The notes beneath the pieces were generated by a model. The model was not told where the DNA came from and did not search any database. It saw nothing but the letters and a program-made list of their open reading frames with translations. A DNA stretch of 64,000 nt. It comes from Escherichia coli (GTDB taxonomy: Bacteria; Pseudomonadota; Gammaproteobacteria; Enterobacterales; Enterobacteriaceae). The stretch is taken from the NCBI RefSeq assembly GCF_965641715.1, contig NZ_OZ282453.1. One strand, written 5' to 3'. This document shows, piece after piece, positions 775 through 28,099 of the stretch (the stretch's first letter is position 1; each line of letters begins with the position of its first letter). The translations under genes were made by a program, and so were the position numbers.

Positions 775-1632
775 ATGTTGTACCTGACGAAAATACGCAA
801 TGCGGAAAGTGAATTTACCGAGAACGAGCAAAAAATTGCTGACTTTCTGCGGGCCAACGTGAGTGAGCTGAAATCCGTCTCTTCGCGCAAGATGGCGAAA
901 CAGCTCGGCATCAGCCAGTCGAGTATTGTGAAGTTTGCCCAGAAGCTCGGCGCACAAGGATTTACTGAATTGCGTATGGCGTTAATAGGCGAATACAGTG
1001 CCAGCCGGGAGAAAACGAATGCCACGGCGCTGCACCTGCACAGTTCGATTACCAGTGATGATTCGCTGGAAGTGATTGCCCGCAAACTGAATCGCGAAAA
1101 AGAGCTGGCGCTGGAGCAAACCTGCGCGTTGTTCGACTACGCGCGGCTGCAAAAAATCATTGATGTCATCAGTAAAGCGCAATTTATTCAGATAACGGGC
1201 CTGGGCGGATCGGCGCTGGTGGGGCGCGATCTGTCGTTCAAACTGATGAAAATTGGCTATCGCGTGGCCTGCGAAGCCGACACGCACGTACAAGCCACCG
1301 TTTCCCAGGCGTTGAAAAAAGGCGATGTACAAATCGCTATCTCTTACAGCGGCAGTAAAAAAGAGATTGTCTTGTGCGCAGAAGCGGCACGAAAGCAGGG
1401 GGCAACGGTGATTGCCATTACTTCTCTGGCTGACTCTCCGCTGCGGCGGCTGGCGCATTTCACACTCGATACCGTTTCCGGTGAAACCGAATGGCGTAGC
1501 TCGTCGATGTCTACCCGCACGGCGCAAAATTCTGTTACCGATTTACTGTTTGTTGGTCTTGTGCAACTCAATGATGTGGAGTCATTGAAAATGATTCAGC
1601 GCAGCAGTGAGCTAACACAACGCCTGAAATGA
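775..1632 (+). CDS. murR: RpiR/SIS-family transcriptional repressor of murQP (285 aa)
   Basis: Internal ATG at 775 of track ORF 520..1632 gives [14 protein letters not shown]...; HTH plus SIS domain; divergent from murQ. Confidence 0.9.
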
Positions 1633-1760
1633 TGCATAAAGCAGCGACTGGATTGAGATTTTCCTGAATTAGTGAGCTGATCCGCAGCAATATTTTGTTT
1701 ATCCTGTATTTTCAGAGGGAATGGAGTGTAACGCTCTGTATTAACAAGGAGAGCATTAAA

Positions 1761-2552
1761 ATGGGTAAACTCACGGGCAAGACAGCACTGATTACGGGCG
1801 CATTGCAGGGAATTGGCGAAGGAATTGCCAGAACTTTTGCACGTCATGGCGCAAACCTAATCTTGCTGGATATCTCCCCTGAGATCGAAAAGCTGGCGGA
1901 CGAACTGTGTGGTCGTGGTCATCGCTGTACGGCGGTTGTCGCCGATGTGCGTGACCCGGCGTCGGTAGCCGCAGCTATCAAACGCGCGAAGGAAAAAGAA
2001 GGGCGCATTGATATCCTGGTGAATAACGCAGGCGTTTGTCGTCTGGGCAGTTTCCTCGATATGAGCGATGACGATCGCGATTTCCATATTGATATCAATA
2101 TTAAAGGCGTATGGAACGTCACGAAGGCGGTGCTGCCGGAGATGATTGCGCGCAAAGATGGTCGCATTGTGATGATGTCTTCGGTCACTGGCGATATGGT
2201 GGCCGATCCGGGTGAAACGGCGTACGCTTTAACGAAAGCGGCGATTGTTGGCCTGACTAAATCGCTGGCGGTGGAGTACGCGCAGTCGGGGATTCGCGTT
2301 AACGCCATCTGCCCGGGATACGTCCGCACGCCAATGGCGGAAAGCATTGCCCGCCAGTCGAACCCGGAAGATCCAGAGTCGGTGCTGACTGATATGGCAA
2401 AAGCAATCCCGCTGCGTCGCCTCGCCGATCCGCTGGAAGTCGGCGAACTGGCGGCCTTCCTCGCATCGGATGAATCCAGCTATTTAACCGGTACACAGAA
2501 TGTGATTGATGGCGGCAGCACACTGCCGGAGACGGTCAGCGTCGGTATCTGA
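1761..2552 (+). CDS. ucpA: Short-chain dehydrogenase/reductase (263 aa)
   Basis: Internal ATG at 1761 of track ORF 1695..2552 (MGKLTGKTALITGALQGIGEG); Rossmann TGxxxGxG motif; RBS ggaga upstream. Confidence 0.9.
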   Translation: MGKLTGKTALITGALQGIGEGIARTFARHGANLILLDISPEIEKLADELCGRGHRCTAVVADVRDPASVAAAIKRAKEKEGRIDILVNNAGVCRLGSFLDMSDDDRDFHIDINIKGVWNVTKAVLPEMIARKDGRIVMMSSVTGDMVADPGETAYALTKAAIVGLTKSLAVEYAQSGIRVNAICPGYVRTPMAESIARQSNPEDPESVLTDMAKAIPLRRLADPLEVGELAAFLASDESSYLTGTQNVIDGGSTLPETVSVGI

Positions 2553-2709
2553 TTCACCTCTGTTTCCTCCCTGCATGTGTGGGGAGGATTTCGTCTTATT
2601 CCCTTTTCAACTTCCAAATCACCAAACGGTATATAAAACCGTTACTCCTTTCACGTCCGTTATAAATATGATGGCTATTAGAAAGTCATTAAATTTATAA
2701 GGGTGCGCA

Positions 2710-3726
2710 ATGGCCGTTAACTTACTGAAAAAGAACTCACTCGCGCTGGTCGCTTCTCTGCTGCTGGCGGGCCATGTACAGGCAACGGAACTGCTGAACA
2801 GTTCTTATGACGTCTCCCGCGAGCTGTTTGCCGCCCTGAACCCGCCGTTTGAGCAACAATGGGCCAAAGATAACGGCGGCGACAAACTGACGATAAAACA
2901 ATCTCATGCCGGGTCATCAAAACAGGCGCTGGCAATTTTGCAGGGCTTAAAAGCCGACGTTGTCACTTATAACCAGGTGACCGACGTACAAATTCTGCAT
3001 GATAAAGGCAAGCTTATCCCGGCGGACTGGCAGTCGCGCCTGCCGAATAATAGCTCGCCGTTCTACTCCACCATGGGCTTCCTGGTGCGTAAGGGCAACC
3101 CGAAGAATATCCACGACTGGAACGACCTGGTGCGCTCCGACGTGAAACTGATTTTCCCGAACCCGAAAACGTCGGGTAACGCGCGTTATACCTATCTGGC
3201 GGCATGGGGCGCAGCGGATAAAGCTGACGGTGGCGACAAAGCCAAAACCGAACAGTTTATGACCCAGTTCCTGAAAAACGTTGAAGTGTTCGATACTGGC
3301 GGTCGTGGCGCGACCACCACTTTTGCCGAGCGCGGGCTGGGCGATGTGCTGATTAGCTTTGAATCGGAAGTGAACAACATCCGTAAACAGTATGAAGCGC
3401 AGGGCTTTGAAGTGGTGATTCCGAAAACCAACATTCTGGCGGAATTCCCGGTGGCGTGGGTTGATAAAAACGTGCAGGCCAACGGTACGGAAAAAGCAGC
3501 AAAAGCCTACCTGAACTGGCTCTACAGCCCGCAGGCGCAGACCATCATCACCGACTATTACTACCGCGTAAATAACCCGGAAGTCATGGACAAACTGAAA
3601 GATAAATTCCCGCAGACCGAACTGTTCCGCGTGGAAGACAAATTTGGCTCCTGGCCGGAAGTGATGAAAACCCACTTCACCAGCGGCGGCGAGTTAGACA
3701 AGCTGTTAGCGGCGGGGCGTAACTGA
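2710..3726 (+). CDS. cysP: Thiosulfate/sulfate ABC transporter periplasmic binding protein
   Basis: 338-aa ORF with signal peptide ([25 protein letters not shown]); first gene of the cysPUWAM arrangement. Confidence 0.93.
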
Positions 3727-22689: not shown

Positions 22690-22848
22690 AACAATTCCCT
22701 GAATGTATGTGGGTCTATTAGTAGTTCATTTTATAGCACCACTTTACAGGAAACCGTGACATGAATAACTACTGAATGCGAGCGGTTTTCCAAAATTGTT
22801 CATTTGCCTGATTTTTCAGCGATTGAAACTACACGCTGCAATTTGCCG

Positions 22849-22877
22849 TTGACACATTCGGGCGGAATTCATATGAT
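22849..22877 (+). promoter_or_regulatory. Sigma70 promoter of the tRNA-Ala pair
   Basis: TTGACA-N17-TATGAT followed by GC-rich discriminator gccgccc, about 32 nt upstream of the first tRNA-Ala. Confidence 0.6.
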
Positions 22878-22909
22878 GCCGCCCGTCAACTCGACAAGCT
22901 TTACGTGAC

Positions 22910-22985
<76 letters not shown>

Positions 22986-23024
22986 AATTTTGCACCCAGC
23001 AAATTTGGTACGTAAACGCATCGT

Positions 23025-23100
<76 letters not shown>

Positions 23101-23107
23101 AATTTCC

Positions 23108-23136
23108 AACCCTCGCTGCAAAGCGGGGGTTTTTTG
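23108..23136 (+). terminator. Rho-independent terminator after the tRNA-Ala pair
   Basis: Hairpin ccctcgc-tgcaaa-gcggggg followed by tttttt. Confidence 0.6.
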
Positions 23137-23307
23137 TCTCTGCTTTTTGCCGCTTTTGTAATACAGTCTACGTCCGGGTTAGCGCCGCCTGGTGAAAGCA
23201 TCATTGGATGAAAAATCGGCAACAGGCTGGCCCCTGTTTGCTTCGCGATGCGAATAAACTTATTATTTGTGTGCCTGAAAACCCCGATCAGTGAGAGTAG
23301 TGTACTC

Positions 23308-25497
23308 ATGTTTGTGGAGCATAACCTGATAAAAAATATCAAGATATTCACACTAGCGTTTACGCTCACCGTGGTACTTATTCAGCTATCCCGTTTTATT
23401 TCGCCACTTGCCATTATCCATTCCAGTTATATCTTTCTGGCGTGGATGCCACTGTGCGTAATGCTGTCAATCTTGTTTATCTTTGGCTGGCGCGGTGTCG
23501 TTCCCGTTTTATGCGGGATGTTTTGCACCAATCTGTGGAACTTTCATCTCTCTTTTTTACAGACTGCGGTCATGCTCGGCAGCCAGACATTTGTCGTGTT
23601 GTGTGCCTGCGCAATATTACGCTGGCAGCTGGGGACGCGTTGGCGTTATGGATTGACCAGCCGATATGTCTGGCAACGTCTGTTCTGGCTTGGTTTGGTG
23701 ACGCCGATCGGCATCAAATGCAGCATGTATCTTGTGGGGAGCTTCTTTGATTTCCCGCTAAAGATATCCACCTTTTTCGGCGATGCGGATGCCATTTTCA
23801 CGGTCGTGGATTTACTAAGCCTTTTCACCGCTGTTCTGATTTACAACATGCTTTTCTACTATCTCACTCGCATGATTGTAAGTCCCCACTTTGCGCAGAT
23901 ATTGTGGCGCAGGGATATCGCTCCGTCATTGGGCAAAGAGAAACGCGCATTTACCTTAAGCTGGCTGGCAGCGTTAAGCGTGCTGCTACTTCTGCTGTGC
24001 ACACCTTATGAAAACGACTTTATTGCCGGTTACCTGGTACCCGTTTTCTTCATCATCTTTACCCTCGGGGTCGGTAAGCTTCGCTATCCGTTTTTAAATC
24101 TCACCTGGGCTGTTTCAACGCTTTGCCTGCTGAATTACAACCAGAACTTTTTGCAAGGGGTGGAAACCGAATATTCGCTGGCATTTATTCTCGCGGTGCT
24201 GATTTCCTTTAGCGTTTGCCTGCTCTATATGGTGCGCATTTATCATCGCAGTGAATGGCTTAATCGCCGCTGGCATTTGCAGGCGCTGACCGATCCGTTA
24301 ACGCTCCTGCCCAACTTTCGTGCGTTGGAACAAGCGCCGGAGCAAGAGGCGGGCAAGAGTTTTTGCTGCCTGCGCATTGATAATCTTGAGTTTATGAGTC
24401 GTCATTACGGGTTGATGATGCGCGTTCACTGTATCCGATCAATTTACCGTACGCTGCTGCCATTGATGCAGGAAAACGAAAAGTTGTATCAATTGCCGGG
24501 TAGTGAACTGCTGTTAGTGCTGAGCGGGCCGGAAACGGAAGGGCGACTCCAGCATATGGTTAACATCCTGAATAGTCGGCAAATTCACTGGAACAATACC
24601 GGGCTGGATATGGGCTATGGTGCTGCCTGGGGGCGTTTTGATGGAAATCAGGAAACCTTGCAACCCTTGTTGGGGCAGTTAAGCTGGCTGGCGGAGCAAT
24701 CCTGCGCACATCATCATGTGCTGGCGCTGGATAGCAGAGAGGAGATGGTTTCCGGGCAGACCACTAAACAGGTGCTATTGCTGAATACCATTCGCACGGC
24801 GTTAGATCAGGGTGATTTGCTGCTCTACGCCCAGCCAATTCGCAACAAAGAGGGTGAAGGTTATGATGAGATCCTCGCGCGACTGAAATATGACGGCGGC
24901 ATTATGACCCCGGATAAGTTTCTGCCCCTTATTGCTCAGTTTAACCTTAGCGCGCGTTTTGATTTGCAAGTGCTGGAATCCTTGTTGAAGTGGCTGGCAA
25001 CACACCCTTGCGACAAAAAAGGCCCGCGCTTTTCAGTTAATTTAATGCCGCTCACGCTGCTGCAAAAGAATATTGCCGGGCGGATTATTCGTCTATTTAA
25101 GCGTTATCACATCTCCCCGCAGGCGGTCATTCTTGAGATCACCGAGGAGCAGGCGTTTTCTAACGCAGAAAGCAGCATGTACAACATCGAGCAGCTGCAT
25201 AAGTTTGGTTTCCGGATTGCGATTGATGACTTTGGCACCGGATATGCCAACTACGAACGGTTAAAGCGTTTGCAGGCTGATATCATCAAAATTGATGGCG
25301 TCTTTGTGAAAGATATCGTCACGAATACGCTGGATGCGATGATTGTGAGATCAATTACCGATCTGGCGAAAGCGAAGTCATTGAGTGTGGTTGCGGAGTT
25401 TGTTGAGACGCAACAGCAGCAGGCGCTATTGCATAAGCTCGGAGTGCAATATCTGCAAGGGTATTTGATTGGACGCCCGCAGCCATTAGTTGATTAA
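23308..25497 (+). CDS. pdeA: c-di-GMP phosphodiesterase-type protein: N-terminal multi-TM sensor domain, degenerate GGDEF, EAL domain (729 aa)
   Basis: ATG at 23308 gives MFVEHNLIKNIKIFTLAFT...; about 9 predicted TM segments; GGDEF position reads GSELL; EAL-domain motifs QPI...EIL and DDFGTGYANY. Track ORF 23248.. is an extension. Confidence 0.85.
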   Translation: MFVEHNLIKNIKIFTLAFTLTVVLIQLSRFISPLAIIHSSYIFLAWMPLCVMLSILFIFGWRGVVPVLCGMFCTNLWNFHLSFLQTAVMLGSQTFVVLCACAILRWQLGTRWRYGLTSRYVWQRLFWLGLVTPIGIKCSMYLVGSFFDFPLKISTFFGDADAIFTVVDLLSLFTAVLIYNMLFYYLTRMIVSPHFAQILWRRDIAPSLGKEKRAFTLSWLAALSVLLLLLCTPYENDFIAGYLVPVFFIIFTLGVGKLRYPFLNLTWAVSTLCLLNYNQNFLQGVETEYSLAFILAVLISFSVCLLYMVRIYHRSEWLNRRWHLQALTDPLTLLPNFRALEQAPEQEAGKSFCCLRIDNLEFMSRHYGLMMRVHCIRSIYRTLLPLMQENEKLYQLPGSELLLVLSGPETEGRLQHMVNILNSRQIHWNNTGLDMGYGAAWGRFDGNQETLQPLLGQLSWLAEQSCAHHHVLALDSREEMVSGQTTKQVLLLNTIRTALDQGDLLLYAQPIRNKEGEGYDEILARLKYDGGIMTPDKFLPLIAQFNLSARFDLQVLESLLKWLATHPCDKKGPRFSVNLMPLTLLQKNIAGRIIRLFKRYHISPQAVILEITEEQAFSNAESSMYNIEQLHKFGFRIAIDDFGTGYANYERLKRLQADIIKIDGVFVKDIVTNTLDAMIVRSITDLAKAKSLSVVAEFVETQQQQALLHKLGVQYLQGYLIGRPQPLVD

Positions 25498-25525
25498 CAG
25501 GCGTAAAAAAGCCGGGGAATTATCC

Positions 25526-26864
25526 CATAAGCGCTAACTTAAGGGTTGTGGTATTACGCCTGATATGATTTAACGTGCCGATGAATTACTCTCACGATAA
25601 CTGGTCAGCAATTCTGGCCCATATTGGTAAGCCCGAAGAACTGGATACTTCGGCACGTAATGCCGGGGCTCTAACCCGCCGCCGCGAAATTCGTGATGCT
25701 GCAACTCTGCTACGTCTGGGGCTGGCTTACGGCCCCGGGGGGATGTCATTACGTGAAGTCACTGCATGGGCTCAGCTCCATGACGTTGCAACATTATCTG
25801 ACGTGGCTCTCCTGAAGCGGCTGCGGAATGCCGCCGACTGGTTTGGCATACTTGCCGCACAAACACTTGCTGTACGCGCCGCAGTTACGGGTTGTACAAG
25901 CGGAAAGAGATTGCGTCTTGTCGATGGAACAGCAATCAGTGCGCCCGGGGGCGGCAGCGCTGAATGGCGACTACATATGGGATATGATCCTCATACCTGT
26001 CAGTTCACTGATTTTGAGCTAACCGACAGCAGAGACGCTGAACGGCTGGACCGATTTGCGCAAACGGCAGACGAGATACGCATTGCTGACCGGGGATTCG
26101 GTTCGCGTCCCGAATGTATCCGCTCACTTGCTTTTGGAGAAGCTGATTATATCGTCCGGGTTCACTGGCGAGGATTGCGCTGGTTAACTGCAGAAGGAAT
26201 GCGCTTTGACATGATGGGTTTTCTGCGCGGGCTGGATTGCGGTAAGAACGGTGAAACCACTGTAATGATAGGCAATTCAGGTAATAAAAAAGCCGGAGCT
26301 CCCTTTCCGGCACGTCTCATTGCCGTATCACTTCCTCCCGAAAAAGCATTAATCAGTAAAACCCGACTGCTCAGCGAGAATCGTCGAAAAGGACGAGTAG
26401 TTCAGGCGGAAACGCTGGAAGCAGCGGGCCATGTGCTATTGCTAACATCATTACCGGAAGATGAATATTCAGCAGAGCAAGTGGCTGATTGTTACCGTCT
26501 GCGATGGCAAATTGAACTGGCTTTTAAGCGGCTCAAAAGTTTGCTGCACCTGGATGCTTTGCGTGCAAAGGAACCTGAACTCGCGAAAGCGTGGATATTT
26601 GCTAATCTACTCGCCGCATTTTTAATTGACGACATAATCCAGCCATCGCTGGATTTCCCCCCCAGAAGTGCCGGATCCGAAAAGAAGAACTAACTCGTTG
26701 TGGAGAATAACAAAAATGGTCATCTGGAGCTTACAGGTGGCCATTCGTGGGACAGTATCCCTGACAGCCTACAAAACGCAATTGAAGAACGCGAGGCATC
26801 GTCTTAACGAGGCACCGAGGCGTCGCATTCTTCAGATGGTTCAACCCTTAAGTTAGCGCTTATG
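25526..26864 (+). mobile_element. IS186 insertion sequence (IS4 family), about 1.34 kb
   Basis: Terminal inverted repeats cataagcgctaacttaagggttg (left) and caacccttaagttagcgcttatg (right); flanked by a duplicated ggaattatcc-type target sequence; carries one transposase ORF. Confidence 0.93.
25575..26693 (+). CDS. insL: IS186 transposase (372 aa as read)
   Basis: ORF MNYSHDNWSAILAHIGKPEELDTSARNAGALTRR... inside the IS186 inverted repeats; IS4-family DDE transposase. Confidence 0.93.
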   Translation: MPMNYSHDNWSAILAHIGKPEELDTSARNAGALTRRREIRDAATLLRLGLAYGPGGMSLREVTAWAQLHDVATLSDVALLKRLRNAADWFGILAAQTLAVRAAVTGCTSGKRLRLVDGTAISAPGGGSAEWRLHMGYDPHTCQFTDFELTDSRDAERLDRFAQTADEIRIADRGFGSRPECIRSLAFGEADYIVRVHWRGLRWLTAEGMRFDMMGFLRGLDCGKNGETTVMIGNSGNKKAGAPFPARLIAVSLPPEKALISKTRLLSENRRKGRVVQAETLEAAGHVLLLTSLPEDEYSAEQVADCYRLRWQIELAFKRLKSLLHLDALRAKEPELAKAWIFANLLAAFLIDDIIQPSLDFPPRSAGSEKKN

Positions 26865-26896
26865 GGAATTATCCCCGGCTTTTTTATGTATGGTGC

Positions 26897-28099
26897 TTAC
26901 AGCACCAGTGCTGCGATTGACGCAGACAGCACACTCACCAGGGTAGAGCCGTAAACCAGTTTCAGACCGAAGCGAGAAACCACGTTACCTTGCTCTTCAT
27001 TCAGGCCCTTAACTGCACCTGCGATAATCCCGATTGAAGAGAAGTTAGCGAAGGAAACCAGGAACACAGAGATGATGCCTTCAGCACGCGGAGAGAGCGT
27101 GGAAGCAATTTTCTGCAGATCCATCATCGCAACGAACTCGTTAGAAACCAGTTTGGTCGCCATGATACTGCCCACTTGCAGTGCTTCACTGGAAGGAACA
27201 CCCATCACCCATGCAATCGGATAGAAGATGTAGCCCAGGATGCCCTGGAAGGAGATGCTGTAGCCAAACCAGCCAGTCACGGTAGCAAACAGTGCGTTCA
27301 GCGCGGCGATCAGGGCGATAAAGCCGATCAGCATCGCGGCAACGATAATGGCAACTTTGAAACCTGCCAGAATGTATTCACCCAGCATTTCGAAGAAGCT
27401 CTGACCTTCGTGCAGGTTGGACATCTGAATGTTTTCTTCACTGGCATCAACACGGTAAGGGTTGATCAGCGACAGCACGATAAAGGTGCTGAACATATTC
27501 AGTACCAGTGCTGCAACGACATATTTCGGCTCCAGCATGGTCATGTATGCACCAACGATGGACATCGACACGGTGGACATCGCCGTTGCTGCCATGGTGT
27601 ACATACGGTTACGGGAGATTTTGCCAAGGATATCTTTATAGGCAATAAAGTTTTCAGACTGACCCAGAATCAGGGAGCTGACGGCGTTAAAGGATTCCAG
27701 TTTGCCCATACCGTTGACTTTGGAGAGCAGGAAACCAATTGCGCGGATAATCACCGGCAACACGCGAATGTGCTGGAGAATACCGATCAGTGCAGAGATA
27801 AAGACGATTGGGCACAGTACTTTCAGGAAGAAGAATGCCAGGCCTTGATCATTCATGCTACCAAAGACGAAGTTAGTCCCTTCGTTGGCAAATCCGAGCA
27901 GTTTTTCGAACATTTCGGAGAAGCCTTTCACGAAGCCTAAACCAACGTCGGAGTTCAGGAAGAACCACGCCAGTAACACTTCGATAACAAGCAGTTGAAT
28001 AACATAACGGATACGAATTTTTTTGCGGTCGCTGCTTACCAGCAGTGCGAGAATCGCAACAACGGCAAGTGCCAGTACAAAATGAAGGACGCGGTCCAT
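26897..28099 (-). CDS. nupC: Nucleoside:H+ symporter (CNT family), 400 aa
   Basis: ATG at 28099 gives [27 protein letters not shown]...; track ORF extends 13 codons upstream. Confidence 0.9.

Follow-up and report, generated by a model that had tools for sequence, protein, structure and literature searches.

The Escherichia coli gene pdeA encodes a membrane protein in which a GGDEF-like domain and an EAL domain both depart from the letters of their signature motifs, and the locus thereby raises the questions of whether its product is an active c-di-GMP phosphodiesterase, what purpose a degenerate cyclase domain serves in it, and what its membrane domain senses. Here, we analyze the pdeA allele found in a 64,000-nucleotide stretch of E. 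coli DNA (contig NZ_OZ282453.1, assembly GCF_965641715.1), hereafter the window, whose features are collected in Table 1. On the residues that it retains and lacks, PdeA is very probably an inner-membrane MASE1 - degenerate GGDEF - EAL protein and a predicted c-di-GMP phosphodiesterase that is catalytically competent, with a GGDEF-like coupler and MASE1 as its input.

The open reading frame is E. coli yfeA (b2395). The K-12 gene is 98.8% identical at the DNA level, RefSeq pdeA (NP_416896.4) has the same length and start, and 727 of 729 amino acids are identical. Near-identity to b2395, together with a place between alaW/alaX and nupC, assigns the gene to the pdeA/yfeA orthologue group of Enterobacteriaceae, and the name pdeA given in the first-pass annotation is confirmed by identity, length, start, and synteny. 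The order gltX, yfeD and yfeC, two tRNA-Ala(GGC) genes, a strong terminator (23108-23131), pdeA, IS186/IS421, and nupC is that of K-12, in which alaW/alaX, pdeA, IS186, and nupC follow one another in the same way. K-12 MG1655 itself was ruled out as the source of the allele by 27 nucleotide differences, two of them amino acid-changing (C380Y and A728V); bearing these two substitutions relative to K-12 PdeA, the window therefore represents a non-K-12 E. coli lineage, which nonetheless carries an IS insertion beside pdeA as K-12 does. C380Y (24445-24447) lies inside the GGDEF-like domain and A728V (25489-25491) is the penultimate residue, neither falling in a functional motif. The exact protein sequence is found in 247 E. 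coli contigs, and positions 22700-26900 of the window are at most 99.4% identical to any complete RefSeq genome. Thus, the open reading frame is a real, conserved gene and no chance open reading frame.

The start at 23308 is favored by the RefSeq MG1655 pdeA start and by the MASE1 profile, which opens at residue 16 counted from this position; upstream of it lies merely a weak GAGAG Shine-Dalgarno-like element. The frame stays open for 20 codons farther upstream, with an ATG at 23248 (23248-23307; MRINLLFVCLKTPISESSVL). A promoter scan of the stretch from the alaX terminator to the start of pdeA revealed no strong σ70 consensus.

Table 1. Features of pdeA and its surroundings, in positions of the window and residues of PdeA.
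Feature	Residues	Position	Strand	Basis or remark
tRNA-Ala pair alaW-alaX		22910-22985 and 23025-23100		Upstream of pdeA
Intrinsic terminator of alaW-alaX		23108..23141	+	10-bp stem, 6 GC pairs, T-run; parts the tRNAs from pdeA
pdeA (yfeA) CDS		23308..25497	+	729 aa plus stop; ORF translation, length and start as MG1655 b2395
MASE1 integral-membrane sensor domain	16-315	23353..24252	+	Pfam PF05231, E 3e-67
Degenerate GGDEF-like domain	about 326-480	24283..24747	+	Sub-threshold Pfam GGDEF and alignments
PGSEL	397-401	24496-24510	+	Opposite G-G-D-E-F in alignments
EAL phosphodiesterase domain	493-724	24784..25479	+	Pfam PF00563, E 2e-59
EIL	521-523
DDFGTGYANY	640-649
Left half of pdeA/nupC bidirectional terminator		25505..25525	+	Parted from its partner half by IS186

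The first-pass annotation had judged PdeA unlikely to be an active cyclase, and the motifs and residues of the GGDEF-like domain agree. The match to Pfam GGDEF (PF00990), over residues 326-423, falls short of the gathering score (20.4 versus 23.8 bits) and takes in profile positions 1-109 of 161. The GG[D/E]EF active-site motif is absent, and PGSEL stands in its place; a reading of GSELL at this site had caught a string that is present (LPGSELLLVL) but was one residue out of register, as PGSEL is what aligns with GGDEF both in a HMMER alignment to RbdA and in a MAFFT alignment to DosC, DgcE, and PdeR. Spurbeck et al. (2012, Table 1) likewise give PGSEL for yfeA, and the consensus KNDHDR+GGDEF corresponds to ESRLVQ+PGSEL in YfeA (PMC3484386). 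In the same MAFFT alignment, the residues opposite DxD...KxxND...GH...GD are replaced and QENE stands where the I-site has RxxD. The residues by which a cyclase binds metal and substrate, and those of its I-site, are lost, and PdeA is therefore no cyclase; with PGSEL, QENE, and the missing nucleotide residues, synthesis of c-di-GMP, GTP binding, and product inhibition are all unexpected.

The GGDEF fold is nevertheless recognizable. In an AlphaFold2 model of PdeA from a 39-sequence alignment (mean pLDDT 80), residues 330-470 have the beta-alpha pattern of this fold, and the tandem aligns to those of RbdA, MorA, and PA0575. A Foldseek search of the PDB with the cytoplasmic half returned the GGDEF-EAL tandems of RbdA (5xge, E 2e-23), PA0575, MorA, DosP, and LapD. 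Among solved structures, Pseudomonas aeruginosa RbdA (PA0861) is the best match to the PdeA tandem in both sequence and fold; unlike PdeA, it possesses PAS sensors and a canonical GGDEF domain and is without MASE1. P397, G398, and E400 of the PG(S/N)EL motif are invariant across orthologues of 55-72% identity, and the catalytically dead domain is therefore under a constraint of its own.

A degenerate GGDEF domain can retain a nucleotide-dependent role, as in Caulobacter PdeA (CC3396), where GTP binding by this domain leads to allosteric activation of the EAL domain. That E. coli PdeA is likewise a GTP-activated phosphodiesterase would be consistent with the constraint on P397, G398, and E400 and with its best fold match, RbdA, having been crystallized with GTP (5xgd). 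However, other residues occupy almost every position at which a GGDEF domain contacts nucleotide, with the published comparison of ESRLVQ+PGSEL to KNDHDR+GGDEF and our own alignment in agreement, and the sub-threshold Pfam match extends over two-thirds of the profile only. We therefore consider GTP activation improbable. Under the preferred reading, that of a competent phosphodiesterase with a GGDEF-like coupler, this domain has kept its fold while losing catalysis, GTP binding, and the I-site, and its most likely function would be that of a structural and regulatory coupler that relays to the EAL domain whichever state the membrane domain is in.

The EAL domain, for its part, has the residues of a working enzyme. 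The Pfam match scores 201 bits (cut-off 31.3) and spans profile positions 2-236 of 236, and the strings that the first-pass annotation had quoted (LPGSELLLVL, YAQPIRNKEGEGYDEILARL, and DDFGTGYANY) are all present in the PdeA protein. An alignment to characterized EAL phosphodiesterases with scoring of catalytic residues, which that annotation had proposed, was carried out with the EAL domains of ten paralogues encoded by K-12 MG1655. Fifteen catalytic or substrate-binding positions were scored (Q509, E521, L523, R525, N578, E610, T612, E613, D640, D641, K661, D663, E697, E700, and Q717); all are kept in PdeA and no essential residue is missing. PdeA is the same as PdeL, DosP, PdeR, and PdeF at all 15, and PdeH agrees with it save at three secondary positions. 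The metal-binding motif DDFGTGYANY is intact, as had been claimed, both as a string and in the catalytic set to which it belongs. The loop 6 consensus DFG[T/A]GY-x-x is represented in PdeA by DFGTGYAN, and its tail is variable in active E. coli phosphodiesterases, with AT in PdeL (YAT), AN in PdeH (MAN), and AS in PdeF at the last two positions. Because all 15 scored positions match those of proven phosphodiesterases, phosphodiesterase competence is largely evident from sequence, and the earlier statement that it was not evident went too far. Superposition by Foldseek of the modeled EAL domain on those of MucR, MorA, RbdA, BifA, and PA3825 gave TM scores of 0.8-0.9 with an rmsd of 2.0-2.7 Å. 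Its best solved match, the EAL domain of P. aeruginosa MucR (5m1t; TM 0.87-0.91, rmsd 2.0-2.5 Å), belongs to a protein that differs from PdeA in having an MHYT membrane sensor and no MASE1.

The EIL triplet had been singled out as a variant of the EAL motif, an emphasis that proved overstated. Among active E. coli phosphodiesterases only the E and L of ExL are conserved, the middle residue being A, V, I, or L, and EIL also occurs in PdeF, whose EAL domain has been described as catalytically active (PMC3718329). Natural variation at this residue exists within the species: pdeA of O157:H7 strain BB24-1 (positions 999-3188 of locus L010) encodes V522 and hence EVL, versus EIL in the window and in K-12. 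As a form of ExL, EIL is neutral and not notable.

An intact catalytic set argues as well against PdeA being a receptor or "trigger" that binds c-di-GMP without hydrolyzing it and has no enzymatic activity, in the manner of LapD, FimX, or CsrD. LapD possesses the same GGDEF(deg)-EAL tandem and is among the fold matches of PdeA, and single deletions in E. coli are weak or ambiguous in phenotype. The metal-binding and general-base residues of PdeA are nonetheless all intact and invariant, whereas several scored positions have been lost in the degenerate EAL domains of CsrD, BluF, and DgcE. Genetic data from Salmonella also fit the removal of c-di-GMP. Salmonella Typhimurium YfeA (STM2410) is 69% identical to PdeA, colinear with it over 722 amino acids, and keeps PGSEL, EIL, and DDFGTGYANY. 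Salmonella needs yfeA to lower c-di-GMP and aggregation in response to external 5-oxoproline (PMC9509341), and deletion of the gene in a yhjH mutant background impairs motility (PMC4992967); both effects are data of Salmonella YfeA only and are genetic only. Deletion of yfeA in CFT073 reduced biofilm rather than raising it, a phenotype that is uninformative because a diguanylate cyclase (DGC) and a phosphodiesterase (PDE) complemented it alike (PMC3484386). We regard a silent receptor as very unlikely. As the predicted phosphodiesterase that its residues point to, PdeA would cleave c-di-GMP to pGpG in a metal-dependent reaction.

Conservation extends well beyond E. coli. A protein search found full-length PdeA orthologues of 55-72% identity in Citrobacter, Salmonella, Enterobacter, Lelliottia, Leclercia, and Pseudescherichia. 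The 15 EAL positions are invariant in 103 such orthologues, a sample in which Enterobacter predominates, and also in a 39-sequence subset below 88% pairwise identity. Within the wider scored EAL set, only residues 522 (I, rarely V) and 644 (T, rarely S) vary. In E. coli, 5420 of 5426 complete genomes contain pdeA at a coverage of at least 80%, and the gene is under purifying selection, with dN/dS between alleles of 0.023-0.032. A Shigella flexneri cluster (P0042, 314 member sequences) is represented by a 440-amino-acid, MASE1-only PdeA truncation, which suggests pseudogenization of pdeA in Shigella; truncated E. coli variants are also present (P0021 and P0038). The notion that pdeA is a decaying relic without selected function, to which this Shigella truncation and a K-12 annotation of PdeA as "putative" only might lend color, is effectively refuted by a nearly full-length gene in 5420 of 5426 complete E. 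coli genomes, a dN/dS of about 0.02-0.03, and full-length orthologues across Enterobacteriaceae.

The large N-terminal multi-transmembrane domain proposed in the first-pass annotation is borne out by three observations: the MASE1 match spans profile positions 2-298 of 299, a hydropathy scan found at least eight hydrophobic segments over residues 7-309, and the AlphaFold2 model forms a helical bundle in this region. A profile match coupled with multiple N-terminal transmembrane helices places the domain in the MASE1 family. By sequence, no solved relative of MASE1 was found in the PDB at E<=10. A model of MASE1 alone (23308-24297) was of low confidence (pLDDT 65), and Foldseek gave no significant fold match to it; GPCR-like matches were set aside as non-significant noise. 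The S-component of an ECF transporter, ThiT (4tkr_B), was likewise not significant (E 2.4, TM 0.52, 208 columns), although it is the sole compact fold match of this low-confidence model and may be kept as a lead only. MASE1 would be the input module of PdeA, responding to a signal that is possibly periplasmic or in the membrane. It has been associated with the rapid proteolytic turnover of PdeA, to which it may contribute. As had been pointed out earlier, the signal is not evident from sequence.

The 3' side of pdeA differs from that of strains lacking an insertion. pdeA and nupC are convergent and have in common a bidirectional terminator, AAAAAAGCCGGGGAATTATCCCCGGCTTTTTT. An IS186/IS421 copy with terminal repeats CATAAGCGCTAACTTAAGGGTTG and a 10-bp target duplication, GGAATTATCC, is present at 25526-26864, in the loop of this perfect bidirectional terminator, the other half of which lies at 26865-26885. 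The intact O157:H7 hairpin folds with -31.1 kcal/mol (z -7.7), versus -10.4 kcal/mol (z -0.7) for the split copy in the window. The element splits the hairpin, and both pdeA and nupC transcripts may therefore read through into it. An IS is found at this site in 455 of 5426 complete genomes, K-12 among them.

Much of this was on record. The first-pass annotation had allowed that this exact variant might already be characterized, which is substantially the case. The motifs of yfeA were tabulated by Spurbeck et al. (2012), whose Table 1 lists MASE1, PGSEL, EILR, QRDD, TE, and ENEEDKEQ (PMC3484386). Lacey et al. (2013) described E. coli YfeA as MASE1-GGDEF-EAL with GGDEF inactive and EAL active (PMC3718329), and Pfiffer et al. 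(2019) and Sarenko et al. (2017) described PdeA as MASE1-GGDEF(deg)-EAL with strong proteolytic processing (PMC6510439, PMC5635695); genetics of a phosphodiesterase type come from Salmonella. In the literature within reach, we found no in-vitro measurement of hydrolysis by E. coli PdeA. A paralogue of like architecture, E. coli PdeF (YfgF), shares MASE1-GGDEF(deg)-EAL, EIL, and the catalytic set at 30% identity over 711 amino acids, and has SGNDL where PdeA has PGSEL. PdeF is expressed anaerobically, with a MASE1 that modulates the aspartate response; the YfgF aspartate phenotype was not reproduced by E. coli YfeA (PMC3718329). Literature and genome annotation thus already cover the gene, the degeneracy of its domains, and its motif strings, a dead cyclase-like domain and an EIL motif being ordinary for the EAL class.

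As an observation, the divergent motifs are of little consequence, and PdeA is typical of the EAL phosphodiesterase class. The input of MASE1 and its gating of the EAL domain are a real question, and a general one, since DgcE, PdeF, UhpB, and many other sensors carry MASE1 as well; to this question the window adds only a conservation map. In 2016, Reinders et al. reportedly isolated alleles with an activating effect in several PDE genes of E. coli. In the 69%-identical Salmonella orthologue, MASE1 is tied to external 5-oxoproline by genetics. The PG(S/N)EL pocket or the MASE1 bundle might directly bind a small-molecule signal, with 5-oxoproline as a candidate by analogy with Salmonella, a possibility that we hold to be rather unlikely. 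If true, PdeA would be the first protein with MASE1 for which both a ligand and a mechanism are defined.
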